From a virus, in IMG/VR virus record IMGVR_UViG_3300045790_002272, positions 1-34,556 of that record: a DNA stretch of 34,556 bases; one strand, given 5' to 3'. Within the stretch, counting starts at the first letter, position 1. The number at the start of each line of letters is the position of its first letter. Of this stretch, positions 3,602 through 34,556 are shown in pieces. The notes under the pieces are model-generated. The model did not search any database. It was not told where the DNA came from and saw nothing but the letters and a program-made list of their open reading frames with translations. Made by a program: the position numbers and the translations under genes.

Positions 3602-4237
3602 TTATATCCACGTTTTTAATGATTGTACAACAACGCCGCATAACCTGGCATCAGCTTGCATTTCCATGATGGGGTAACGTGGATTGATGGGCTTTAGATA
3701 GCGTTTTCCGCCATCTATCACTAGTTGTTTGCAGGTTGCTTCGGTGTTGCCGTTTTGGATAACGATAACAATGCTGTTGTGTTCTGCGATGCGAAGCGGG
3801 TCTACGATAACAATTTCATTGTCTTTTATATCAGGTTCCATTGAATCGCCTTGTATGCGCAGTGCAAAGGCGTTTTCGCTGGTTGTGGCGGTGCTTAAAA
3901 CCCAATCTTGCTCATCTTTTGGGTCGTAGTTGTCGCCAATGTCTTTCCAGTTGCCTGCGGCGACACTTGAGATAAGGGGGACGGGTTTAGAATGCACTTG
4001 GTAGGTGTTTGGGGCTTCTTTAACAGCATGGGGCGGTTTGCTGGTTCCTTCTGAGAGCCAAGCTGGGTCAACGTCTAAAACATCACAGGCTTTTATAAAA
4101 TGTGCTCTGGGGATGCCTCCGCGAACTTTCCATAGGTTTACGTTTTGTGGTTCGGTGCTCATTTTTCTAGCAAATTCTGCTTGGCTGATGCCTTTTTGCT
4201 TAAGTGCTAGGTTTAGTCTTTCTCTAAATTTTTCCAT
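3602..4237 (-). CDS. CI/LexA-like repressor (HTH_XRE plus S24 peptidase)
   Basis: GISQAEFARKM HTH, AAG cleavage-site-like motif, GDSM serine and CKQL lysine motifs. Start trimmed to ATG 4237 (MEKFRERL); no SD upstream. Confidence 0.85.
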   Translation of the reverse strand: MEKFRERLNLALKQKGISQAEFARKMSTEPQNVNLWKVRGGIPRAHFIKACDVLDVDPAWLSEGTSKPPHAVKEAPNTYQVHSKPVPLISSVAAGNWKDIGDNYDPKDEQDWVLSTATTSENAFALRIQGDSMEPDIKDNEIVIVDPLRIAEHNSIVIVIQNGNTEATCKQLVIDGGKRYLKPINPRYPIMEMQADARLCGVVVQSLKTWI

Positions 4238-4251
4238 ATACAAAAAGTATA
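4237..4251. promoter_or_regulatory. Operator-like palindrome TATAC-N5-GTATA abutting the cI start codon
   Basis: TATACAAAAAGTATA. The same half-sites recur at 4297-4311 and 2934-2948. Confidence 0.5.
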
Positions 4252-4284
4252 GTTATTAATTGTTATCAAATATATATACGTATT

Positions 4285-4315
4285 GTTGACTTACTGTATA
4301 CGTTTCGTATATATT
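4285..4315 (+). promoter_or_regulatory. PR-like promoter with operator
   Basis: GTTGACT-tact-GTATAC-gttt-CGTATATATT. -35 is TTGACT, spacer 16-18 nt, -10 is TATATA/TATATT. TATACGTTTCGTATA overlaps the -10. Confidence 0.7.
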
Positions 4316-4321
4316 CAACAC

Positions 4322-4522
4322 ATGAGTAAATTAGATAAAGCAATTGAAATTGTTGGCAGTCAGGCAATGTTAGCTAAACAGCTAGGTGTTACTCCACCTG
4401 TTGTATTCCACTGGAAGAAACGAGGTGTTCCTGCTAAGTATTGTCGGAAAATCCAGAAAATAACGGGTGACGCTGTTATTGCCTCTGATTTGCGCCCCGA
4501 TGTGTTTGGGGATGCTGGCTGA
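4322..4522 (+). CDS. Cro/YdaS-like HTH protein
   Basis: MSKLDKAIEIVGSQAMLAKQLGVTPPVVFHWKKRGVPAKY..DLRPD matches the YdaS/Cro-like pattern. Divergent from cI. The ATG lies about 7 nt after the -10, so the transcript may be leaderless. Confidence 0.7.
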   Translation: MSKLDKAIEIVGSQAMLAKQLGVTPPVVFHWKKRGVPAKYCRKIQKITGDAVIASDLRPDVFGDAG

Positions 4523-4566
4523 TGTTTTGTTTTCTTCCATTTTTACACTCGCTTGGTTGGCGTGTT

Positions 4567-4598
4567 GCCCGTTCCTGTTGGTTCGGGCTTTTTTATTT
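4567..4598 (+). terminator. Intrinsic terminator after cro (tR1-like)
   Basis: GCCCG-12 nt-CGGGC followed by TTTTTTATTT. Confidence 0.6.
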
Positions 4599-4666
4599 AA
4601 CGTGGGTTTATTGTGCGGGGTTGCGGTTACTGAATCTATCCGTGCAAATACGGATAAGGAGGTTTT

Positions 4667-5047
4667 ATGGCTATGGTTGTATTTGAAAAGGGCTGCTTAA
4701 CAGATACGGAGCTGTCGGTTTTAAGGCTGTTGGCAGATGGTTTAACGCATAAGGAGATTGCGCGTTCTATTGAATGTACAACTGCTAGCCATCGAACGGT
4801 TGAAAGCCATGTTAAGCATATTTCTGAGAAATTAGGCAGTAGGAACGCGGCGCATATGATTACGGAGGCCATGAAGGTTGGCATTATTAAGCTGCTGACA
4901 TTCGGGGTGGTTTGTGTGTTGTCTTTTAATTGCGTAATGCCTGGTTTGGATAATAGAGCGCCACTTCGCCGCCCACCGCGTGCGGTAAGGGTTAGTAGAA
5001 CGGTTGCTCGGGTTAGGGTTGAGCGTTTGGGTGGAGCGGCTGCATGA
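4667..5047 (+). CDS. LuxR/GerE-type HTH regulator with a hydrophobic C-terminal segment
   Basis: LTDTELSVLRLLADGLTHKEIARSI..SHRTVESHVKHISEKLG, then LLTFGVVCVLSFNCVM and an Arg-rich tail. RBS GGAGG. Confidence 0.7.
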   Translation: MAMVVFEKGCLTDTELSVLRLLADGLTHKEIARSIECTTASHRTVESHVKHISEKLGSRNAAHMITEAMKVGIIKLLTFGVVCVLSFNCVMPGLDNRAPLRRPPRAVRVSRTVARVRVERLGGAAA

Positions 5048-5826
5048 GCATTGGTTTAATGGGGCTCGTTTTTAAAGATGAAGAGTTGCAGAGCAATGAG
5101 AAGTTGGTGTTGTTGGCGCTGGCTGATAATGCGAATGACGAGGGGATTTGTTATCCATCGTTAAGCACTTTGCAGGTTAAAACAAGTTTATCGCGCCCGA
5201 CTGTTTCTAAAATTTTGAAAAAGTTGGCGGCGAATGATTATTTATTTGGTGTTAATCGTGCGCGTAAAAAAGGCGGTAGAAGTTCGAATATGTATTTGCT
5301 TTTTCCGGCTAAAAATTACCCTAACTTGGATGAGTTTTTTAAGTCTAAATTTGAGGCGTATGAGTGTGTTAATTCTGAGTTATCCACAGGCCAAAGTAAA
5401 GAGGCTTTACTACCCCCCCAAAGTAAAGAGGCTTTACTAGGGTTAGGGAGCCAAAGTAAAGAGGCTTTACTAGAAAGTGAATCATTACTTAAAAGCTTAT
5501 TTAACCATAAGGGATTTTCTTGTTTAAAACGTGATGAGAAAACGCTGTTTCTGTCGTACCTAAAATTACGCAAAAAAATGGGCTTGATTACGACGATGGA
5601 AATTAAGATTCGGTTGCTTGAAAAATATCATGCATTTGGCCGTGATATGCAGATTATTGAAAACGCGATTAATGCAAATTGGAAAGATTTTTATTCAACG
5701 GGAGGGAAAGATGGAGCGAGTGGAAAATTTAGTAAAACAACATCAGCCGCGCAATCCCACCACGACACGCTCAAGCAAATTGCAAAAGAAGCCGATGAGC
5801 GAGAAATGGGTGAGCGCGTTGTTTAG
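5044..5826 (+). CDS. Replication initiator (HTH, lambda O-like role)
   Basis: N-terminal HTH_36-like EKLVLLALADNANDEGICYPSLSTLQVKTSLSRPTVSKILKKL. Iterons lie inside the gene. Confidence 0.65.
   Translation: MSIGLMGLVFKDEELQSNEKLVLLALADNANDEGICYPSLSTLQVKTSLSRPTVSKILKKLAANDYLFGVNRARKKGGRSSNMYLLFPAKNYPNLDEFFKSKFEAYECVNSELSTGQSKEALLPPQSKEALLGLGSQSKEALLESESLLKSLFNHKGFSCLKRDEKTLFLSYLKLRKKMGLITTMEIKIRLLEKYHAFGRDMQIIENAINANWKDFYSTGGKDGASGKFSKTTSAAQSHHDTLKQIAKEADEREMGERVV
5391..5472. repeat. Origin iterons: 3 copies of CCAAAGTAAAGAGGCTTTACTA
   Basis: Exact 22-mers at 5391, 5418 and 5451, each with the dyad GTAAAG/CTTTAC, followed by an AT-rich stretch. They encode QSKEALL x3. Confidence 0.7.
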
Positions 5827-17273: not shown

Positions 17274-18833
17274 ATGCAAAAAATACTATTACTAACGCTT
17301 CTGCTATGCAGCTCGCATCTGTACGCGCAAAACTACTATGTGTGCGATACGGGCGACGACAATAACGCAGGCACTTCTATTGCTGCGCCGTTTAAAACAG
17401 CCTCTCGTGCTTTAGGTGTATTCAATTCTATGAACGGCGGTGATAGCGTTTTGTTTTGCAAAGGAGGCAAGTTTCCTGCACCTAATCGAAATACGCTCTT
17501 TAATCAAAAATGTAGCGCAAGCTCAGTGTGTACACTTGGTGCATATGGGCAAGGTAATAAGCCAGAAATATTTTCTACAGGCCAAACGGCGGCGCTTTAC
17601 TTTACAGACAGTGGCGACCCGTCCCCCAGCAAAGGCTATGTGGTTAAGGATTTAGCATTAGTCTCAGACAATACAACAATGTTTGGTATTGAGCTTTTTA
17701 ATGATGTTGATGATGTCACGATTGAAAATGTGCGCATTGAAGGGTTTGGTATAGGGGTCTATTCAGCAGGCGCTAATGCCGTTACCTCGTCAACTGTAAA
17801 CGGCACGAATGACAGACTTGTGTTACGAGACTCAACCATTATTAATAATTATGGACAGGGCTGGTTAGGTGGTGGTGTCGGTGTGCTGATTGAGAACAAT
17901 ATTTTTGAAAATAATGGGTTTGAAAAAGCAGTCTTTAACCATAATATTTATTTATCTGGGCATGAAAATAACCCAAGCTCAGACATTATTGTCCGTGGGA
18001 ACACGCTGTATAAATCTGCGTTTATCAACGGCAGTTGCCAAGGCGTCTCGTTGGTGGGGCATGGATTAATTAGTAATTTACTGATTGAAGATAACCTTAT
18101 TAAAGAAGATGAAGGCACCGCCGGGTTTGGTTGTTGGGGTATTGCCATAGACCCAGGGTATTCAATGCAAGAAGCCTTCACAGGTTTAACGATTAGAAAT
18201 AATAGAGTCGAAAACGTTGGCGGTTTAGCCATTGGTTGTGCCTCGTGTGTTGATGTAGTTGTAGAGGGCAACACGATACTTGACCCTTCAGGTTCTATAC
18301 GCTCTGGCGTTGCTATTCCTGATCGCGCAGAAGATTCTTTATTATCCGACAATGTGGTGATTAAAAATAACACAATGCTGTTAGGTCGCGTTGATGCGAC
18401 CGGGGTAAGGGCCTCTGGCGCTAATTTATTTACTGTTATTAATAACAGTATAGATCAAGTATCAAACAGTACAGAACCGTGCATTGATGGGTGGGCAGGG
18501 AACGCGAACTTAGACACATCGACAAATATTTGTACAAAAAACGGCGTATTGCCTACGCCAGTTGATGAACCCGTTGACGAACCAGTTGATGAACCCGTTG
18601 ACGAACCTATTGATGAACCTATTGATGAACCTGTTGGATGTGCTGATGTCTCAAAACAGCAGTTAGCTGGGCTATTAACGCAGCTAACAAATTTAATGAA
18701 TAACGCGGGTAATACAGTATCTGCAATGCGTTCAGTAACAGATTTGTATAGTAAAGATCAGGAAGTATTAAATGAGTTAGCGGCATTTAAAATGCTGTTA
18801 CAAGGCAAAAAACTTTGCAGTGAGGCAAACTAA
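17274..18833 (+). CDS. Secreted right-handed beta-helix (pectate-lyase-fold) protein
   Basis: Sec signal MQKILLLTLLLCSSHLYA|QN. Repeated xNNxI/V motifs (IENNIFENN, IEDNLI, IRNNRVENV, VEGNTI, IKNNTM, INNSI). (VDEP)n linker. Confidence 0.65.
   Translation: MQKILLLTLLLCSSHLYAQNYYVCDTGDDNNAGTSIAAPFKTASRALGVFNSMNGGDSVLFCKGGKFPAPNRNTLFNQKCSASSVCTLGAYGQGNKPEIFSTGQTAALYFTDSGDPSPSKGYVVKDLALVSDNTTMFGIELFNDVDDVTIENVRIEGFGIGVYSAGANAVTSSTVNGTNDRLVLRDSTIINNYGQGWLGGGVGVLIENNIFENNGFEKAVFNHNIYLSGHENNPSSDIIVRGNTLYKSAFINGSCQGVSLVGHGLISNLLIEDNLIKEDEGTAGFGCWGIAIDPGYSMQEAFTGLTIRNNRVENVGGLAIGCASCVDVVVEGNTILDPSGSIRSGVAIPDRAEDSLLSDNVVIKNNTMLLGRVDATGVRASGANLFTVINNSIDQVSNSTEPCIDGWAGNANLDTSTNICTKNGVLPTPVDEPVDEPVDEPVDEPIDEPIDEPVGCADVSKQQLAGLLTQLTNLMNNAGNTVSAMRSVTDLYSKDQEVLNELAAFKMLLQGKKLCSEAN
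18558..18635 (+). repeat. 12-bp tandem repeat encoding (P-V/I-D-E)x6-7
   Basis: ccagttgatgaa/cccgttgacgaa units, in frame within 17274-18833. Confidence 0.85.
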
Positions 18834-19261: not shown

Positions 19262-20799
19262 TGTCGATTATACTACCGAATAGCCGATTCCAAGCCCCTG
19301 AGTTATTCGACGGCACTAAAAAGCCTGCCGTTAATGTACAAATTGATTGGTCGAATCCGGTCACAGAGGGTTTAGTCGGCTTTTGGATATTTCAAAACGG
19401 CCTAGCTATCAATTTAGTTGATGGCACTATTGTTAGCGATACAGCTGGCATGACCGAGGCAGATGCTGAAACAATCGCGTGGGATGATGCGGCCTCAACT
19501 AATGCGGCGTTTACATTACAAAGCGGATTCGATTTTACAAGCAATGCGACGGTTATCGCGCGCGTTAAAAAAATAGGCACGGAAGGCTGGCCTATTCTAT
19601 TCAGTATGGGCAGTAATCCCGCCGCGACAGATGATTTTGTCGGCATGGGCTACTGGGACACGGGCCCCAATCTTAGAACGTTTTATGCATCATCCTCACG
19701 TGTTATTAGTAAGTCTGTGAACCGAGGGGTTTATCTTACGGGCGCTTTAACGGCGGACGTTGCTGCAAATGAAATAAAAGCTTATGTGGATGGGCAGTAC
19801 AGGGTAACTGACTCAATCAGCTCAAAAGGGTTAGATCTTACGAAGATTGATAACATCACGCTCTTTGGTCAAGGTACAACAGTTGTAGAGCCGCTAGGAT
19901 TGTTTGAAGGTGACTACGTTATTGCGTTTGAGTCTACTAAAACGGCTGAAGAGGTAGCATCACTTTATGATTCGCCGTATCAGTTTTTAATACCTGAGGT
20001 TGGGGCGTCGCTTATATCGCTTGGTCATCTGCAAAGTGCTGATGGGCTTGGTTCCTTTGCCGATACAAGTAGCTGGCAGCCGTTAACTTCCGTTAAGTTG
20101 TCGGGGTTAGTAACGCTTGGCAGTGTTGACAGTTTTAATGACTTGTCGATTAGTAAAACAGTTCAATTAGGCAGTTTTGCAGAAGCATCAACATTTAGTG
20201 CGCTAAACAGCAGTAAAGTTATACAGCTGGGTTCATTTAGTGAATTAAGTGCATTTGGTTCTATCACTAGCACGCAAGGCGTTCAGCTAGGTGCGCTATC
20301 TGAATCATCAGCGTTTGGCAGCTTAAATGCTGGCAAAGTGTTGCAGCTTGGCTCGTTTGGCGAGTTAACTACGTTTAATGCGATAACCTCTGGCAGTGCG
20401 GTAACGCTGGGTGCATTGGCTGATGCGGGCGCATTTGGTGGCATAACTAGCACTAAAACAGCGGTGCTTAATCCCTTTAACGATGCATCGGCGTTTACTG
20501 CATTAAGCAGCAGTAAAGCAACTCAGCTGGGTGCCTTTGGTGAGTTAAGTGTTTTTAATGCGGTAACCCAGGGTAATTTTGTAACGCTTGGTGCATTTGG
20601 CGAGGCCAGCAGTTTTGCAAACATTGCCACAGCTAAAGCGTTTAATCTTACCGGGTTTAGCACGACTGATTTATTCGGCGCTATTAATGCCAGCGGTGGC
20701 GCTCAAGTAATAGGTGGTCACCGTGCAACTGTGCAGCAATCACTTAATAGCAGCGTCATTACTCAATCGAATAGCAAAGCAACGATAACGCTTCAATAA
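19261..20799 (+). CDS. LamG/ConA-like N-domain protein with a C-terminal 20-aa repeat array
   Basis: N-terminus LVGFWIFQNG...DGT.. is LamG-like. aa 261-480 are 10-11 units of xxLGxFxExSxFxxIxSxxx. Confidence 0.55.
   Translation: MSIILPNSRFQAPELFDGTKKPAVNVQIDWSNPVTEGLVGFWIFQNGLAINLVDGTIVSDTAGMTEADAETIAWDDAASTNAAFTLQSGFDFTSNATVIARVKKIGTEGWPILFSMGSNPAATDDFVGMGYWDTGPNLRTFYASSSRVISKSVNRGVYLTGALTADVAANEIKAYVDGQYRVTDSISSKGLDLTKIDNITLFGQGTTVVEPLGLFEGDYVIAFESTKTAEEVASLYDSPYQFLIPEVGASLISLGHLQSADGLGSFADTSSWQPLTSVKLSGLVTLGSVDSFNDLSISKTVQLGSFAEASTFSALNSSKVIQLGSFSELSAFGSITSTQGVQLGALSESSAFGSLNAGKVLQLGSFGELTTFNAITSGSAVTLGALADAGAFGGITSTKTAVLNPFNDASAFTALSSSKATQLGAFGELSVFNAVTQGNFVTLGAFGEASSFANIATAKAFNLTGFSTTDLFGAINASGGAQVIGGHRATVQQSLNSSVITQSNSKATITLQ
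20041..20700 (+). repeat. 60-bp (20-aa) tandem repeats, about 11 copies, diverged
   Basis: Exact 20-residue periodicity counted from the translated ORF (VQLGSFAEASTFSALNSSKV / IQLGSFSELSAFGSITSTQG ...). Confidence 0.8.
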
Positions 20800-29183: not shown

Positions 29184-30371
29184 CTATTTGACACCGTTTA
29201 GACCCTTTTTCTCTTGGAATGGGGTAGATTCGCGCATTATTTGTGATTGTTTTGCTTTGTCGGATTTTTCTATCCATCGTGCATAGCTTCTGAAGAATTC
29301 TTTTAATGAATTGCCCATTTGATCTGCTAGATAGCCTGGTGAGCAGCCTTGTGTGAGGTAATAGCTGGCGTAGCTGTGGCGCATGTTGTACATGGGGCGG
29401 TGGCGTAGTTTTAGGTGCGTGAGTACGCGTTTCCATGCCAGTTGCAGGGGTTCTATGTTGATGAGGGGTTTTTGATTGGCTTGGGTGAATACCCATTCTT
29501 TTTTGAAGCCGCTTATTTCGCGCATGGTGTTTAGTGCGTGTTCTGTGCGGCTGTTTAAGTCGATGATTCTGCTTTCGCCTGTTTTTGTGCCTTGTTCGAT
29601 GCCGTTGCGGGTTCGTTTGCGGCAGATGCGTGCTTCTTGGTTGCGGATGGATATTTCGTTCCAGAGTAGTGCGGTGGGCTCGCTGGGTGATCGTACGCCG
29701 CTGTAAAAGCAAAATTCTATGTATGCTGCGTGTTCTTTGCTTTCGCGCGCGTAGAAGGCGTCTATTATTGCGTTGGCTTCTACGTTGTCGAACGGGTCTG
29801 GTAGGGGTGTTGGCCGTGTTTTGTTGGTGATTTGTTCGCAGGGGTTTTGGTGTTTTAGTATGGCGCCGTCTTTTACCGCTTGGTTGAATGTGCCGCGCAA
29901 GCAGGTTAGCCAGTCGTTATACGTGCTAACGCTGGGGGTTTTGTTGTATTCTTGCTGAAATTCATCTATTACGCTGGCGAGTGTGTCTGATATTAGGCTG
30001 TAGCTGATGCTGGCTATTTGTCGATCGCTTAAGTAGGGCATCCATATCCGGTTGAGGATGCCTTTCCATTTGTAGCTGGTGCGCTCTGTCCAGCCGTTTT
30101 GTGGGTTGTTGACCCATGATTGTGCATAGTGATGAAATGTGCCTGCGCTGCGGCTGGTGGCGCGTGGGTCGTTCGGGAAGTAATCGCTCCACCTGAATGT
30201 GCCGTATTTGCATTTTAGGCGTATTTGCTCGCGTAGTTCGGCGGCTTTTTGGACGTTGGCGGGTGTGGCGGTCCATCCATCGAGTGTGACATAGCTGTAT
30301 TTTTTATCGCCTGGTGGTTTAAATTTTATTTGTATTTGACCGCCGCGAATTCGTACGCCTTTTGTTGCCAT
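29184..30371 (-). CDS. int: Tyrosine integrase (lambda-type, with an arm-binding N-domain)
   Basis: N-terminus GVRIRGGQIQIKF (arm-binding type). Catalytic YSGVRSPSE (R), NMRHSYASY (H-x-x-R region), FFRSYARW (Y). About 100 aa separate box I and box II, so there is no IntI-type insertion. Confidence 0.9.
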   Translation of the reverse strand: MATKGVRIRGGQIQIKFKPPGDKKYSYVTLDGWTATPANVQKAAELREQIRLKCKYGTFRWSDYFPNDPRATSRSAGTFHHYAQSWVNNPQNGWTERTSYKWKGILNRIWMPYLSDRQIASISYSLISDTLASVIDEFQQEYNKTPSVSTYNDWLTCLRGTFNQAVKDGAILKHQNPCEQITNKTRPTPLPDPFDNVEANAIIDAFYARESKEHAAYIEFCFYSGVRSPSEPTALLWNEISIRNQEARICRKRTRNGIEQGTKTGESRIIDLNSRTEHALNTMREISGFKKEWVFTQANQKPLINIEPLQLAWKRVLTHLKLRHRPMYNMRHSYASYYLTQGCSPGYLADQMGNSLKEFFRSYARWIEKSDKAKQSQIMRESTPFQEKKGLNGVK

Positions 30372-30706: not shown

Positions 30707-31048
30707 TTATGCAGCATTCGAGAAGTTGGTAATCTCAGAGATTCCAACACGTTCTTGGTATCCGCTAGATTGAGTAAAATCTTTTGTTAGCCACACATCA
30801 CCCATGCGGCTGGCTCCAGTGACTCGGTAGCGCTCGCCTTTATAATCACAATAGAGTTGGTACTGAGTAATAATATTGGAGAACTTACACTTCAATGTTT
30901 CCGGCATTCTCTTCATATTCAAAAACCAGCTTGCGTACACGTCTGTGTCGGGATGGTCAATGAATTCGTCAACATGCTCCATAACAAGCAGGTCAACTCG
31001 ACCGCTTACCGCGTCGTTTGTTTCAAATTCTGTGGTTCCGTTTATCAT
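30707..31048 (-). CDS. Hypothetical protein (113 aa)
   Basis: RBS GGAGA. TAA stop is the complement of TTA in GTTATGC (30706-30712). Confidence 0.55.
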   Translation of the reverse strand: MINGTTEFETNDAVSGRVDLLVMEHVDEFIDHPDTDVYASWFLNMKRMPETLKCKFSNIITQYQLYCDYKGERYRVTGASRMGDVWLTKDFTQSSGYQERVGISEITNFSNAA

Positions 31049-31107
31049 TTTCGTGTCTCCAAGTTTGTGCCACTCAATCGCGGCAAGTTACCTTCATCGT
31101 TATGTGT

Positions 31108-31356
31108 CTAAATCATATCGTCGATTCGTTTTTTTAATCCGTTAATATTGCGAATATCATCAAGCCTTCTATGGCCATGGAAATAATCATCAATTAGATT
31201 CATATCTACCCACCGACTTTCCTCTAAGTCAAAAAACTGCTTTTCGCAATTAAGATACACTCCTTCCATTTCATCGCCATAGTTGTACATGCAATAAGTG
31301 ACTGCCATATTCGGTGCATCATCCACTATCTGCGTATCAGTTTTGTAGCCCTTCAT
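31108..31356 (-). CDS. Hypothetical protein (82 aa; start trimmed to MKGYKTD)
   Basis: Strong RBS GGGAGGA 4 nt upstream of ATG 31356. Confidence 0.5.
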   Translation of the reverse strand: MKGYKTDTQIVDDAPNMAVTYCMYNYGDEMEGVYLNCEKQFFDLEESRWVDMNLIDDYFHGHRRLDDIRNINGLKKRIDDMI

Positions 31357-31371
31357 AAATCCTCCCGTAAC

Positions 31372-31496
31372 ACATAACAACAGCTTCATTGCGACCCTGC
31401 GGGTCGTGGCTTTGTTCTGTATTTTCGTTTGCGTCTGTCATCGTCTCAATCTCCTAAACCTACTTCCCCGCAGGGCGCTATAAGCAGGGGTTATAC
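31372..31496 (+). repeat. attC-like site (125 nt)
   Basis: ACATAAC-AACA-GCTT[C]ATTGCG[A]CCCTGCGGG...63 nt...CCCGCAGGG-CGCTAT-AAGC-AGGG-GTTATAC. About 19 bp of pairing, with two unpaired bases 6 nt apart on the 5' arm. Confidence 0.65.
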
Positions 31497-31769
31497 GGAT
31501 AGTCCGTCTCGATCAGCCAGCGCTGTCTCGCATGAATTTAGTAGCGTTGATGTGTGAACTAAGTTTCTTTCTGCCAATCCTAGCTGTAGCTCAAGCTCCT
31601 TAATTCTATTCAAGCTTCGCTCAGCAAGATCAACGCAGGAAACGGTAATGAACGACTCGTACCCTGATTCAGTTTCATACAGAACATCAATCTCTGAGTT
31701 ACCCAAGTCGTCAGGAGAGTAAGCGGCTAATGTTTCTAGTTGATATTTTATGTGTTCGTTTTCATTCAT
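31491..31769 (-). CDS. Hypothetical acidic protein (92 aa; start trimmed to MNENEH)
   Basis: RBS GGAG upstream of ATG 31769. The longer form would run into the attC-like site. Stop lies in GTTATAC. Confidence 0.55.
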   Translation of the reverse strand: MNENEHIKYQLETLAAYSPDDLGNSEIDVLYETESGYESFITVSCVDLAERSLNRIKELELQLGLAERNLVHTSTLLNSCETALADRDGLSV

Positions 31770-31787
31770 AGTTTTTACTCCGTTTTC

Positions 31788-31849
31788 GTATAACAAGTCT
31801 TTCAAAAAGAGCCGGAACAGCACCGGCCTGTTTAACTAGGGCGTTAGCG
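31788..31849 (+). repeat. attC-like site (62 nt, type 1)
   Basis: GTATAAC-AAGTC-TTT[C]AAAAAG[A]GCCGG-aacagca-CCGGCCTGTTTAAC-TAGGGC-GTTAGCG. Confidence 0.7.
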
Positions 31850-32005
31850 AGCCTGGCGGCGCTTGTTCAGCTTCGCAACATAGGCCCGTATCTGCTTAAA
31901 ATCGTCAGGGTGGGCATAAAGGCTTCGAATCTCTTTAAGCCCCTCTGCTGCCCTGCGCTCCTTTAATTCTGCCTGCCGCTCCGCAACGGTTTTGGCAGCA
32001 CTCAT
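31844..32005 (-). CDS. Small basic protein (53 aa), ERQAxLxERRAAxG family; not in the ORF track
   Basis: Hand translation gives MSAAKTVAERQAELKERRAAEGLKEIRSLYAHPDDFKQIRAYVAKLNKRRQAR. ATGA overlap with the upstream ORF. Paralogue of 33693-33836. Confidence 0.55.
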   Translation of the reverse strand: MSAAKTVAERQAELKERRAAEGLKEIRSLYAHPDDFKQIRAYVAKLNKRRQAR

Positions 32006-32187
32006 ATCCGTTCCGCCTTTGTCGCTGGAACAGACTTGAGGTCTCCTTTAGGCCAGTTGCACTTAGATGACTGAGGGGAGCAAAGCAGTATCACGCGCCC
32101 ACTTGCTCCAAATTCGATATCCTCAATCTTCCAGTCTGCACCGTTGAATTTAACTATTGCGCCCTTTTCAATTTCTTCCAGTTTCAT
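32002..32187 (-). CDS. Hypothetical protein (61 aa), first gene of a two-gene unit
   Basis: RBS GGTGA. Preceded by its own promoter. Translationally coupled to the 53-aa ORF. Confidence 0.5.
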   Translation of the reverse strand: MKLEEIEKGAIVKFNGADWKIEDIEFGASGRVILLCSPQSSKCNWPKGDLKSVPATKAERI

Positions 32188-32213
32188 ATCTTCACCTTTA
32201 GGTTAGTCGTAAC

Positions 32214-32244
32214 ATAATAATAGCTGTTAGTCGTAACGTGTCAA
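32214..32244 (-). promoter_or_regulatory. Cassette-internal sigma70-like promoter flanked by 12-bp direct repeats
   Basis: Minus strand: TTGACA, 17-19 nt spacer, ATTATT/TATTAT. GTTACGACTAAC occurs twice (32226-32237 and 32202-32213), bracketing the -10. Confidence 0.55.
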
Positions 32245-32251
32245 GTGTTTT

Positions 32252-32321
32252 CGCTAACACCCCGCAGCATCCGACCCTCAAAGCTTGCAGCTTTTCGGTC
32301 GGCTGTGCTCCAAGGTTATAT
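32252..32321 (+). repeat. attC-like site (70 nt)
   Basis: CGCTAAC-ACCCC-GCAGCATCCGACC-ctc-AAAGCT-tgc-AGCTTT-tc-GGTCGGCTGTGC-TCCAAG-GTTATAT. Spacers are 5 and 6 nt. Extra bases on the 5' arm. Confidence 0.55.
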
Positions 32322-32537
32322 GTACGCCTTTACAAAAAGTGGTGCTCTTAAATATGTCTTTGACGCGTCATCAAAAACCATATTATTCGGATTTAGCTCT
32401 CTGTAATTTTTAAAATCTCTCGTAGCAGTTGCAGGGCTAATTCCAAAGAAATCTATAATAAATTCACGTTTTATTTGGCCGTATTTATCTAGCAAAAAGT
32501 CAATCAGCCTGAGTCTTTGTTCAATTGCGTAGTTCAT
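32316..32537 (-). CDS. Small wHTH protein (73 aa; DeoR/HTH_11-like)
   Basis: RLRLIDFLLDKYGQIKREFIIDFFGISPATATRDFKNYRE. Stop lies in GTTATAT. Confidence 0.55.
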   Translation of the reverse strand: MNYAIEQRLRLIDFLLDKYGQIKREFIIDFFGISPATATRDFKNYRELNPNNMVFDDASKTYLRAPLFVKAYI

Positions 32538-32560
32538 AATTTACCTTTTTCACGGTTTTC

Positions 32561-32622
32561 ATATAACAATTCTTTCAATCAGAGCCGGAAAAGCACCGGC
32601 CTGTTTAACTAAAGCGTTATGT
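32561..32622 (+). repeat. attC-like site (62 nt, type 1)
   Basis: ATATAAC-AATTC-TTT[C]AATCAG[A]GCCGG-aaaagca-CCGGCCTGTTTAAC-TAAAGC-GTTATGT. Confidence 0.7.
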
Positions 32623-32952
32623 GTCTTCATTTCTTGATTTCATTAAGACTCTAATTTCTTGGGCTATTATTTGACGCGCCCTGGTCGCGCTTACACCTAG
32701 AACTTCGCCAGCTTGTGCGTAAGTCTTTCCGTCTAATTTATGTAGTGTTAGGATGATTCCTCGGAGTCGCTTATTCTGATTTTGTAGCTTTTGATAGCTC
32801 TCGTAGGTCACGTTGGCTTCTTTTTTATCGCTTCTGTTGCTTTTTTTGAGATCAGCTTCTTTTTTTCTAGAGGCCTTGATTTCCTCCGTTAGGCTCCTTT
32901 CTTTATTTCTCACTCTTTCTCGTTCTTCAATTAATACGCTTAAATCGCTCAT
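32617..32952 (-). CDS. Coiled-coil protein with a C-terminal sigma70-region-4-like HTH (111 aa)
   Basis: KTYAQAGEVLGVSATRARQIIAQEIRVL. ATG lies in GTTATG (complement of the TAAC box). Stop lies in GTTATGT. Confidence 0.55.
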   Translation of the reverse strand: MSDLSVLIEERERVRNKERSLTEEIKASRKKEADLKKSNRSDKKEANVTYESYQKLQNQNKRLRGIILTLHKLDGKTYAQAGEVLGVSATRARQIIAQEIRVLMKSRNEDT

Positions 32953-33051
32953 AACAAGTATCTCCAGTTGACAAATAACCGCATCGGCATTTGTCGTTAA
33001 ATTTAAAGTTTTCAGTAGCGGTTATTTGCTACTGAGAATTTGGCGTTATGC
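32949..33051 (+). repeat. attC-like site (103 nt, type 2)
   Basis: TCATAAC-AAGTA-TCTC[C]AGT-tga-CAAATAACCGC...GCGGTTATTTG-ct-ACTGAGA-ATTTGGC-GTTATGC. The complement of TCTCC is the GGAGA RBS of ORF 32617-32952. Confidence 0.65.
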
Positions 33052-33261
33052 TTCGGGCAGTTTGTAGTTTCCATCATTTCGCGGCCACAAGAAAATAGCA
33101 TCCTTCGGAGGAATCCACCCTCTAGCCTTTGACCCTACAGGGTGAGCTATACAGTCTGATCGATTAACACCGTAAAGTTTTGGCAGTTGCCAAGCGCTTA
33201 TATAGTGCCTATCACCATCTTTGGCTACTACCCCACCTCCGCTTAATACATAAATAGGCAT
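33046..33261 (-). CDS. Hypothetical protein (71 aa)
   Basis: ATG lies in GTTATG, RBS GGAGA lies inside the type-2 site, stop lies in GTTATGC. Confidence 0.55.
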   Translation of the reverse strand: MPIYVLSGGGVVAKDGDRHYISAWQLPKLYGVNRSDCIAHPVGSKARGWIPPKDAIFLWPRNDGNYKLPEA

Positions 33262-33359
33262 AACAAGTATCTCCAGTTGACAAATAACCGTTCCGGCTTT
33301 GTCATTAAATTTAAAGTTTTCAGTAGCGGTTATTTGCTACTGAGAATCGGGCGTTAGGC
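33258..33359 (+). repeat. attC-like site (102 nt, type 2)
   Basis: Near-identical to 32949-33051, with differences in the central loop and the right-hand spacer. Ends GTTAGGC. Confidence 0.65.
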
Positions 33360-33696
33360 CGCTATGTAAACGCGGTGTTGTCCGGCAACTTTCATATCTT
33401 TTGTAAGCTCCTTTATTTCACCAAGCTCAACCAGCCTGTCTACGCAAGCCAGCATTGCCCACGAATCACCAGTGCAGCCAGCAATAATCTCTTGGCACCT
33501 CGCAGCCCCCGAGGTTTCTAAAAGCCGCTTTGCTTGGTCGCGTATTTTTAAAAATTGCTTTTGGCCTTCTTCTGTAAAAATGGCTGCCTTTTCATCTTCA
33601 TAGTTGTACATAAATCAATCCGTAGTTGGGCGCTGCCTAACAACGCCATTAAAAATCGGACTCCGCTACCGCTACGCCGTTTATGGCAAGGGTTAT
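33351..33696. repeat. 346-bp direct repeat, copy A (ORF plus attC-like site)
   Basis: Identical to 34290-34556 continued at 128-206, except one base (33618 a versus 128 c). Confidence 0.9.
33354..33611 (-). CDS. Hypothetical protein (85 aa), copy A
   Basis: Protein identical to 34293-34550. Stop lies in GTTAGGC. Confidence 0.6.
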   Translation of the reverse strand: MYNYEDEKAAIFTEEGQKQFLKIRDQAKRLLETSGAARCQEIIAGCTGDSWAMLACVDRLVELGEIKELTKDMKVAGQHRVYIAA

Positions 33697-33698
33697 GT
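33635..33698 (+). repeat. attC-like site f2 (64 nt)
   Basis: Same as 145-208 but ends GTTATGT. Confidence 0.6.
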
Positions 33699-33836
33699 TG
33701 CCTTTCGCAATTTTCTTACTAATTCATCAACTTTTACTTTCTCAGCATTGGTTAAGAAAAACTCCCGTCTTTTTTGGCCTAAAGCAGCTCTACGTTCTCG
33801 CAGAGCTGCTTGGCGTTCTTTATTTGATTTAGGCAT
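33693..33836 (-). CDS. Small basic protein (47 aa), ERQAxLxERRAAxG family; not in the ORF track
   Basis: Hand translation gives MPKSNKERQAALRERRAALGQKRREFFLTNAEKVKVDELVRKLRKAT. ATG lies 2 nt after the stop of 33839-34144. Stop lies in GTTATGT. Confidence 0.5.
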   Translation of the reverse strand: MPKSNKERQAALRERRAALGQKRREFFLTNAEKVKVDELVRKLRKAT

Positions 33837-33838
33837 TG

Positions 33839-34144
33839 TTATCCGCCAAAAGGCTCTGATCCGTTATTGCTACCAAAATCTTGTCCCCAAATTTCAATAT
33901 TCCAATCCTGTATCGCTTTTTGACAGATGGGTTCGTAGTAGCTTTTTTCTCCTGATTTAACAATAATATCAAGAGCTTTTATAGTCGCTTCCATTTCACT
34001 ATCAGATGTTTCTCCGTTAAATCCTTCCCCCATTATATCTATAGCATCTATACCAGAATCTATCCCATCACATAATGTTTCTATGTCATTCATATTGAAG
34101 TTTTCTTCTAATCCATCTACTACATGTTTAAATAAAGTTGTCAT
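33839..34144 (-). CDS. Strongly acidic hypothetical protein (101 aa)
   Basis: About 21 D/E versus 5 K and 0 R by my count. RBS GGAG. Preceded by its own promoter. Confidence 0.55.
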   Translation of the reverse strand: MTTLFKHVVDGLEENFNMNDIETLCDGIDSGIDAIDIMGEGFNGETSDSEMEATIKALDIIVKSGEKSYYEPICQKAIQDWNIEIWGQDFGSNNGSEPFGG

Positions 34145-34173
34145 TTCCTACTCCTTTTCGTTAATGTAGGTAT

Positions 34174-34202
34174 ATTATTGCATTGTTACCGGTAACAGTC
34201 AA
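34174..34202 (-). promoter_or_regulatory. Cassette-internal sigma70-like promoter with a palindromic operator
   Basis: Minus strand: TTGACT, 17-nt spacer, AATAAT. The perfect palindrome GTTACCGGTAAC (34185-34196) fills the spacer. Confidence 0.6.
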
Positions 34203-34236
34203 GCGATTAATGCAAATAAAATAATTTAGGACGGCA

Positions 34237-34298
34237 ACATAACAAGTCATTCAATCAGAGCCGGTAAAGCACCGGCCTGTTTAACTAAAGCGTTAGGC
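34237..34298 (+). repeat. attC-like site (62 nt, type 1)
   Basis: ACATAAC-AAGTC-ATT[C]AATCAG[A]GCCGG-taaagca-CCGGCCTGTTTAAC-TAAAGC-GTTAGGC. Confidence 0.7.
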
Positions 34299-34556
34299 CG
34301 CTATGTAAACGCGGTGTTGTCCGGCAACTTTCATATCTTTTGTAAGCTCCTTTATTTCACCAAGCTCAACCAGCCTGTCTACGCAAGCCAGCATTGCCCA
34401 CGAATCACCAGTGCAGCCAGCAATAATCTCTTGGCACCTCGCAGCCCCCGAGGTTTCTAAAAGCCGCTTTGCTTGGTCGCGTATTTTTAAAAATTGCTTT
34501 TGGCCTTCTTCTGTAAAAATGGCTGCCTTTTCATCTTCATAGTTGTACATAAATCA
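34290..34556. repeat. 346-bp direct repeat, copy B (continues at 128-206 across the circular junction)
   Basis: Exact match to 33351-33617. The remainder matches 33618-33696 with one mismatch. Confidence 0.9.
34293..34550 (-). CDS. Hypothetical protein (85 aa), copy B
   Basis: Identical to 33354-33611. Confidence 0.6.
   Translation of the reverse strand: MYNYEDEKAAIFTEEGQKQFLKIRDQAKRLLETSGAARCQEIIAGCTGDSWAMLACVDRLVELGEIKELTKDMKVAGQHRVYIAA

Follow-up and report, generated by a model that had tools for sequence, protein, structure and literature searches.

Small two-gene phage units with exchangeable cargo genes and a probable autorepressor related to plasmid repressor F

Introduction

What purpose do two very short, overlapping genes serve that stand behind a near-consensus promoter of their own in a temperate phage genome, and why does the second of them have a relative in the same genome that follows an unrelated partner? 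This question is raised by the minus strand of positions 31844-32244 of the IMG/VR virus record IMGVR_UViG_3300045790_002272, which was analyzed over its whole stretch of 34,556 nucleotides (nt), referred to here as the window. The two genes encode proteins of 61 and 53 amino acids (aa), respectively, and are termed unit 1. In a second unit at 33628-34298, termed unit 2, a gene for a 101-aa protein precedes a gene for a 47-aa protein. Each of these units is probably a self-contained, negatively autoregulated phage cassette, consisting of a near-consensus promoter, an exchangeable cargo gene, and an autorepressor that belongs to the family of protein F of plasmid RSF1010 and acts on a GTT-N6-AAC operator. 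Loci and contigs compared with the window are numbered with the prefix L.

Architecture of unit 1

Read along the minus strand at 31844-32244, unit 1 has the layout TTGACA-C-GTTACGACTAAC-AGC-TATTAT-TAT-GTTACGACTAAC-CTAAAGGTGAAGAT-ATG, followed by the 61-aa and the 53-aa open reading frame (ORF), which share 4 nt in an ATGA overlap. The promoter agrees with the consensus at 11 of 12 positions and is the top promoter-like site in a consensus scan of 30.3-34.5 kb. The putative operator GTTACGACTAAC is present in exactly two exact copies in the whole 34.5-kb window, and these two copies flank the -10 element of unit 1. A preliminary description of this DNA had claimed a two-gene cassette with a TTGACA promoter, two operator copies and an ATGA overlap at this place, all of which is found on the minus strand. 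Its TTGACA and TATTAT hexamers are likewise present, while the spacer between them, given there as 17-19 nt, measures 16 nt. Both ORFs had also been placed outside the track of ORFs of 60 aa; the 61-aa ORF passes this threshold.

Compared with locus L020, the 53-aa gene of the window has 18 synonymous and 5 non-synonymous codon differences and the 61-aa gene has 20 and 11, respectively, with the changes in both genes lying mostly at codon position 3. As judged from these substitutions, both genes are under purifying selection and evolve as coding sequence. For the 61-aa cargo, just 4 clusters are present among 5.8 billion proteins; it is probably beta-rich, and its AlphaFold2 (AF2) model is of low confidence, with a predicted local distance difference test score (pLDDT) of 59. 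The AF2 model of the 53-aa protein reaches a pLDDT of 89 and consists of a helix (residues 7-20), an extended segment (21-32) and a second helix (33-52).

Searches of Pfam, PHROGs, PADLOC and PDB sequences with the four proteins of both units returned nothing significant, except for a match of the 47-aa protein to phrog_536. The region had no match in INPHARED phages by blastn, and the 53-aa protein gave no phage match by tblastn, its only matches being two weak ones in Acidovorax plasmids. No relative was found in a single-protein scan of GTDB genomes, and an Rfam search of the window gave nothing. The features of both units are compiled in Table 1.

Table 1. Features of units 1 and 2 and of the adjoining attC-like sites in the window
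Feature	Position	Strand	Remarks
Unit 1
attC-like imperfect palindrome, unique type X	32252-32317	-	directly 5' of unit 1 promoter
Sigma-70-type promoter	32217-32244	-	-35 TTGACA 32244-32239; 16-nt spacer; -10 TATTAT 32222-32217
Putative operator copy 1, GTTACGACTAAC	32226-32237	-	between -35 and -10; invariant in window, L020, L021, L001, L007
Putative operator copy 2, GTTACGACTAAC	32202-32213	-	3 nt 3' of -10; 24 bp start-to-start from copy 1
Shine-Dalgarno AAGGTGA of 61-aa gene	32192-32198	-	read from sequence
Cargo gene, 61 aa	32002-32187	-	ORF; no Pfam, PHROG, PADLOC match
F-repressor-family protein, 53 aa, predicted autorepressor	31844-32005	-	ORF, family profile, NF041430 E=0.0021
attC-like site, type A	31788-31849	-	closes unit 1; regulator stop codon inside CGCTAAC core
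Unit 2
attC-like site, type A	34237-34298	-	5' of unit 2 promoter; retained with unit 2 in sister phage L034
Promoter TTGACT-17-AATAAT, TG-extended	34174-34202	-	second best in 30.3-34.5 kb consensus scan
Perfect palindrome GTTACCGGTAAC	34185-34196	-	single copy, adjoining unit 2 -35
Cargo gene, 101 aa	33839-34144	-	ORF; acidic (isoelectric point 4.1)
Predicted regulator, 47 aa, F-repressor family	33693-33836	-	phrog_536 'transcriptional regulator' match 1e-4
attC-like site Y	33628-33700	-	after unit 2; second copy at 128-209

The regulator family and its relation to RSF1010 F

In a direct BLASTP comparison of the 53-aa and the 47-aa protein, 13 of 20 residues are identical (E=2e-5), a similarity that is modest on its own. 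A profile built from both proteins retrieved 56 small metagenomic proteins, none of which has a Pfam domain, and intermediate sequences among them bridge the two window regulators. Both regulators match the family motif K-x3-R-[VQ]-A-A-L-R-x-R-R-A-A-x-G-L-x-R-[LV]-E-x-[YW]-x-x-P-x-D-x3-I-[KR]-x-[YF]-A-x2-L. An exhaustive search of representative proteins with a hidden Markov model (HMM) yielded 1695 matches at E<=1e-3, and about two thirds of the best 150 of these are full-length matches in proteins of 50-110 aa. The top HMM matches were giant repeat proteins in which only profile positions 24-50 aligned, and these were treated as spurious. The regulators are therefore assigned to one family, comprising hundreds of proteins of 50-100 aa outside the coverage of Pfam.

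The only characterized relative of this family is a plasmid protein. Of 64 family members, 16 have a match to the NCBIfam model NF041430 ('UrfF, plasmid repression protein F'), the best at E 4.7e-9. The 47-aa protein and RSF1010 F are 41% identical over 39 aa (BLASTP E 6e-7), and the family profile aligns with F over 51 columns in hhalign (90.6%, E 1.3e-6). The entire 47-53 aa of the window regulators align to the core of F. According to these alignments, the phage regulators are distantly related members of the family of the IncQ/RSF1010 repressor F, forming a branch of their own, rather than orthologs of IncQ F.

In PMC2200642, which cites Maeser et al. 1990, F is described as the autorepressor of P4, the promoter of the E-F-repA-repC operon. 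On the IncQ1 plasmid L025, urfF (68 aa) is located between a gene for a 70-aa hypothetical protein (E) and repA-repC, and P4 reads TTGCGT-tg-GTACTCACGC-ctgt-TATACT-atga-GTACTCACGC. The two GTACTCACGC copies are 24 bp apart from start to start, one in the spacer and one right after the -10 element, which is the spacing and placement of the operators in unit 1. Plasmid operon and phage unit thus have in common a homologous small repressor that is encoded second, after a small uncharacterized gene, and, for unit 1, the arrangement of two operator copies around the -10 element. Negative autoregulation has been demonstrated for F and is predicted for the phage units. In contrast to the phage regulators, F has 68 aa with longer tails and a different operator, GTACTCACGC, and its operon continues into repA-repC and sets the copy number, whereas the phage units stop after the regulator. 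The phage units further differ in being located in phages, in their exchangeable cargo and attC-like boundaries, and in scores far below the NF041430 cut-off.

Pfam searches gave no helix-turn-helix (HTH) or ribbon-helix-helix match for the regulators. Two members weakly match the CopG-type LexA-regulated protein PRK11675, and the middle segment has an alternating hydrophobic pattern (VRVEVWV) that is strand-like. In view of this pattern and the weak PRK11675 matches, the regulators might form a ribbon-type dimer in which the N-terminal helix is basic. Supposed resemblances to DUF3018/MazE-like proteins and RepB-RCR_reg found no support in hmmscan. An NCBIfam match to BacA was dismissed, as BacA is a DUF2170 protein of about 140 aa that resembles chaperones of type III secretion systems.

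Exchangeable cargo genes and the toxin-antitoxin alternative

The genes preceding the regulator were surveyed in about 20 independent loci, all of them phage-like. In every surveyed locus, the family regulator is the final gene of its unit, in most cases overlapping its predecessor or directly adjoining it; in unit 2 of the window, the 101-aa and the 47-aa gene are separated by a 2-nt gap. The preceding genes encode proteins of 37-126 aa, which are frequently acidic. All-vs-all BLASTP of 16 units resolved at least 14 unrelated cargo families, of which the 61-aa family alone recurs. The unit with the 61-aa and the 53-aa gene is also present in two unrelated phage backbones, L020 and L021. Locus L007 has the promoter of unit 1, both operators and a regulator with 83% identity, yet a different cargo of 71 aa. 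In locus L001, the 61-aa cargo is shortened to 40 aa and stands beside a regulator of the unit 1 type. More generally, regulators of one type (83-96% identical) are found with unrelated partners. Conversely, the 101-aa cargo is encoded in L031 and L035 with neither a regulator gene called after it nor room for one. Searches of Pfam, PADLOC and PHROGs with about 16 cargo partners revealed no toxin or other family match, and no cargo matches a known anti-CRISPR (Acr) or anti-defense family.

These results bear on several claims of the preliminary description. The kinship of the 53-aa and the 47-aa protein is supported by BLASTP, by the single profile that recovers both together with intermediates, and by their shared homology to F. 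The first genes of the two units are unrelated, as had been claimed. The survey of the genes preceding the homologs, which had been put forward there, revealed variable upstream partners, and together with the operators described below this supports the proposed modular family of a variable first gene and a conserved autoregulator on a GTTA..TAAC site. The implied role of the 61-aa ORF as a toxin is not upheld, because this regulator type pairs with unrelated partners, none of which resembles a toxin. Four features had gone unnoticed there: the attC bounds of the units, the nature of the window as a temperate phage, the named relative of the regulator, and the layout in common with P4-E-F of RSF1010.

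One alternative is a type II toxin-antitoxin cassette whose gene order is reversed, in which the first gene would encode the toxin and the small basic protein an autoregulating antitoxin; this order is frequent in two-gene cassettes of chromosomal integrons that have their own promoter. An attC-bounded cassette in which a palindrome controls the promoter of two small, coupled genes would fit such a system; toxin-antitoxin cassettes with their own promoters are a textbook case in integron arrays, and one is located in a Vibrio phage (PMC9892861). It is nevertheless unlikely. None of the first genes resembles a toxin or any family of the three databases searched, and the 47-53 aa of the regulators consist wholly of the conserved F-like core, which leaves no space for a toxin-specific neutralizing domain. 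The single regulator type with unrelated partners, the partner truncated to 40 aa, and the 101-aa cargo without a following regulator also speak against it. That one regulator/operator pair occurs with unrelated cargos speaks for an autorepressor of a generic kind rather than for a toxin-antitoxin pair.

A further pair with its own promoter lies in the array of the sister phage L034 at 4059-4873, where TTGACT-N17-TATAAT with a GTGAAC..GTGCAC repeat precedes a 62-aa gene and a gene for a 136-aa HTH_3 protein. This HTH_3 protein is a second regulator type in the same role of the last gene.

Operators across loci and the proposed mechanism

A GTT-N6-AAC palindrome is located at the unit promoter in nearly every locus. 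Its commonest form, GTTACCGGTAAC, stands at the head of the operon whose final gene encodes the regulator in L008, L014, L015, L017, L018, L026, and unit 2 of the window, and is often the sole GTT-N6-AAC sequence in 4-8 kb. Typically, the operator directly precedes the first cargo gene; an exception is L008, where operator and regulator gene are about 2 kb apart, with the operator upstream. The variant GTTACCGGAAAC, which differs in one pair, has the equivalent position in L009-13 and L028. Other palindromes are located between the -35 and -10 elements in L002 (GTTAGCGCTAAC), L005/6 (GTTGCGCGCAAC) and L019 (GTTACGCGTAAC). In the 5 loci with a regulator of the unit 1 type, the block from the -35 element to the second operator is near-invariant, and the 5' untranslated region, cargo and flanks vary. 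This co-occurrence of operator and regulator is the best computational evidence for the prediction that the regulator reads the GTT-N6-AAC site.

In L014 (~470-490), L017 (~3690-3710) and L018 (~1215-1235), a LexA-box-like sequence, CTGTATGAATTA(C/T)CAG, is located about 35 nt 5' of GTTACCGGTAAC. These sites suggest a possible SOS input for some family members; no LexA-box-like sequence was seen in the units of the window.

Briefly, the proposed mechanism would be as follows. The near-consensus sigma-70 promoter would drive a small cargo gene (61 aa in unit 1, 101 aa in unit 2), and the regulator of 47-53 aa would be produced by translational coupling to the cargo. The regulator, presumably as a dimer, would then occupy one or two 12-bp GTT-N6-AAC operators at the core of the promoter, which they overlap, and so repress the transcript from which it is made. 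Expression would thus increase quickly before reaching a ceiling, whatever the early-left transcription of the phage. F acts on P4 in this manner, and anti-CRISPR-associated (Aca) proteins, among them Aca14, follow the same principle in their operons. With a generic regulator and a swappable cargo, the unit would travel between phages as an attC-bounded cassette.

Several points weigh against this mechanism. DNA binding, repression and the oligomeric state of the 53-aa and 47-aa proteins are predictions from sequence. The operator of unit 1 is an imperfect palindrome with a central CGAC, unit 2 has one operator site instead of two, and some loci (L008, L016) have their nearest operator at a great distance upstream or yielded none. 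The AF2 monomer of the 53-aa protein consists only of two helices and an extended linker, and a Foldseek comparison of this model with the PDB gave no match. Finally, the 53-aa protein scores only 18 bits against NF041430 (E 0.0021), for which the equivalog cut-off is 100 bits.

The descent of the regulators also raises a second alternative, namely a replication or copy-number control module similar to that of IncQ plasmids, in which the F-like repressor would target downstream replication genes. The sole characterized relative, RSF1010 F, does govern repA-repC from P4, but such a role is very improbable for the phage units. In the window, the regulator stop is directly followed by an attC-like site and then by unrelated cassettes instead of rep genes. 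In other phages, the regulator gene is the last one before convergent lysis or structural genes, and no rep-type genes are co-transcribed downstream in any phage locus examined. In addition, the phage encodes its own O-like initiator with iterons elsewhere. A third alternative, namely that the ORFs and the promoter arose by chance in non-coding spacers separating the repeats, might be considered for ORFs so short and devoid of Pfam annotation, but its probability is close to nil, as it is refuted by conservation data, namely the codon-position bias of substitutions, the 56 homologs and hundreds of representative homologs, the gene order and operators conserved in many independent loci, and the exact 12-mer duplicated 24 bp apart.

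The attC-like array

Both autoregulated units lie in an array that extends over ~30980-34556 and 1-600 on the minus strand and consists of at least 10 small gene modules, each divided off by attC-like sites. These sites, 50-120 nt in length, are imperfect palindromes whose ends are conserved as ...TAAC / GTTA...; three belong to type A, two to type B, one further type is present twice, and several are unique. They were delimited by manual reading of the intergenic regions, as a finder based on regular expressions and RNAfold gave too many false positives. By inspection, they have RYYYAAC/GTTRRRY cores, asymmetric spacers of 5/6 nt, and an extra-helical base. The polarity was derived from an alignment of the arms to attC_aadA1 of plasmid R100, which after aadA1 reads TCTAAC-AATTC-GTT[C]AAGCC...GGCTTAAC-TCAAGC-GTTAGAT. 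The type A arms score 10-19 on the plus strand and about -6 on the minus strand. Since the type A sites match attC_aadA1 on the plus strand, the phage genes are on the attC bottom strand; this applies to all ORFs of the array, which are thus inverted relative to canonical cassettes.

This polarity agrees with the attC retained on the 5' side of a duplicated cassette, with the type A site on the promoter side of unit 2, and with breakpoints at CATAAC. The duplicated cassette contains an 85-aa ORF and is present at 33351-33699 and at 34290-34556 plus 1-209. The copies are 99-100% identical and keep the attC on their 5' side, and on their 3' side the attC types differ, being B and A. The breakpoints are evident from a comparison with L034, which is 99-100% identical to the window outside the array. 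The array is the sole variable segment between the two phages; the cassette content differs, with breakpoints at CATAAC cores, and L034 carries other cassettes in place of unit 1. The presence of the unit in the window, its absence from the near-identical L034, and the breakpoints at attC cores support the interpretation as a mobile cassette.

The window contains no gene for an integron integrase. Its sole integrase (29184-30371) has an arm-binding domain and is of the lambda Int type. Because this is the only integrase and there is no adjacent IntI or attI, the array resembles clusters of attC sites lacking integron integrases (CALINs). Such clusters are known from phages, although they are seldom found there, with 17 CALINs in 10,705 genomes (PMC9892861).

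The boundaries of unit 1 are also conserved in other loci. The block with the 61-aa and the 53-aa gene is bounded by the inverted 7-mers GTTAGCG...CGCTAAC (32252-32258 / 31843-31849), and this also applies to L020, L021, L001 and L007. The type X site reads ATATAAC...GGGGT-GTTAGCG on the gene strand, and homology among the loci begins at the GTTAGC core. Outside the block, the attC-like hairpins are unrelated in all five loci, which is not predicted by canonical integrase chemistry or standard cassette excision and insertion. On the gene strand, the type A hairpin after the 53-aa gene has, together with its T-run, a terminator-like score. At 31810-31828 on the minus strand, this hairpin is followed by CTTTTTG and resembles an intrinsic terminator; the other two type A copies are without a T-run. 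The type A site after the 53-aa gene may hence also serve as the terminator of unit 1.

Other occurrences of cassettes and cores were noted. The type A core is also present beside metabolic genes in a metagenome-assembled genome of Cycloclasticus (L022 6548-7300, CAJXOJ010000032.1), where the ORFs that follow it have the canonical orientation, on the top strand. This site hints at a chromosomal cassette array and at the host lineage. In L034, a cassette at 3837-4058 with attC-like sites on both sides encodes a 73-aa protein that matches PF21825 (E 4.6e-15). PF21825 is the Sequestin family of anti-Thoeris sponges for 3'-cyclic adenosine diphosphate ribose (3'cADPR; bioRxiv 10.1101/2025.07.12.664507). 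Beside unit 1 in the window, a single-gene cassette at 32316-32537 (minus strand), which is common to L034, encodes another 73-aa protein that matches PF26109, the winged-helix domain of BrxR, and weakly HTH_DeoR.

Phage genome context

The window encodes a CI-like S24 repressor, an O-like initiator, a terminase, a major capsid protein, and a lambda-type integrase, and has a GC content of 44%. Its last 127 nt (34430-34556) are identical to its first 127 nt (1-127), and contig L033 reads across the junction, which together mark the window as a complete, circularly permuted genome. On the basis of this gene content and terminal identity, it is regarded as the complete genome of a lambdoid temperate phage of ~34.4 kb. 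The phage is present in at least 8 samples. Both autoregulated units are located in the minus-strand early-left operon, between recombination/accessory genes and xis-int.

Repeats were also observed in other parts of the genome. Within the gene of the O-like replication initiator (5044-5826), three 23-nt direct repeats, GCCAAAGTAAAGAGGCTTTACTA, are located at 5390-5472; these are probably origin iterons as in lambda. Large structural ORFs of the tail region contain a 12-nt unit repeated six times in frame (18558-18629) and three 75-nt copies (20182-20556).

Comparison with known systems and implications

The architecture of the units is a variant of P4-E-F and of acr-aca operons, in the rare setting of an attC array in a phage, and the regulators add a new and distant branch, found in phages, to a plasmid repressor family already known. 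The likeness to operons of acr and anti-CRISPR-associated (aca) genes, including that of the non-HTH Aca14 (PMC13551039), is one of layout: one or two highly variable small unannotated genes are followed by a conserved gene for a small, here putative, DNA-binding protein, the strong promoter is overlapped by an inverted repeat, the operons are located in phage accessory regions, and the regulator could be used as a marker for guilt by association. They differ in that the cargos of the phage units match no known Acr or anti-defense protein and that the regulator is non-HTH.

Toxin-antitoxin cassettes of chromosomal integrons resemble the units in having two genes with their own promoter in an attC array, inverted relative to the attC polarity. 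In contrast to these cassettes, the phage units encode no recognizable toxin, and their regulator is too small and generic for a cognate antitoxin. Phage CALINs (Qi et al. 2023, PMC9892861) share with the window an attC-like array between small ORFs in a phage without an integron integrase. The array of the window differs from these in that all ORFs are on the bottom strand, that it is placed inside a lambdoid early-left operon, and that it is hypervariable between near-identical phages.

The location in phages, the small size and frequent acidity of the cargos, and the Sequestin cassette in the neighborhood have led to the tentative suggestion of a cargo role in counter-defense or host takeover. 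By the same token, F-family genes could conceivably be an unrecognized non-HTH, Aca-like marker of counter-defense or host-takeover genes and attC arrays phage banks of anti-defense cassettes, although the odds are rather against it.

A plasmid repressor from 1990 is now tied to a sizeable phage protein family outside Pfam, with the predicted operator consensus GTTACCGGTAAC. Because variable orphan genes are always followed by the regulator gene as the last one, the regulator may be used, like Aca proteins, as bait for accessory or anti-defense genes of phages. A neighboring cassette of L034 encodes a member of a proven class of immune-signal sponges. If the suggested role is true, the orphan cargos, among them those of 61 and 101 aa, would be new anti-defense proteins that can be found through guilt by association, and the bottom-strand attC arrays would mirror the defense cassettes of bacterial integrons. 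Integron-type shuffling of counter-defense genes among phages is made testable by these exchangeable cassettes.

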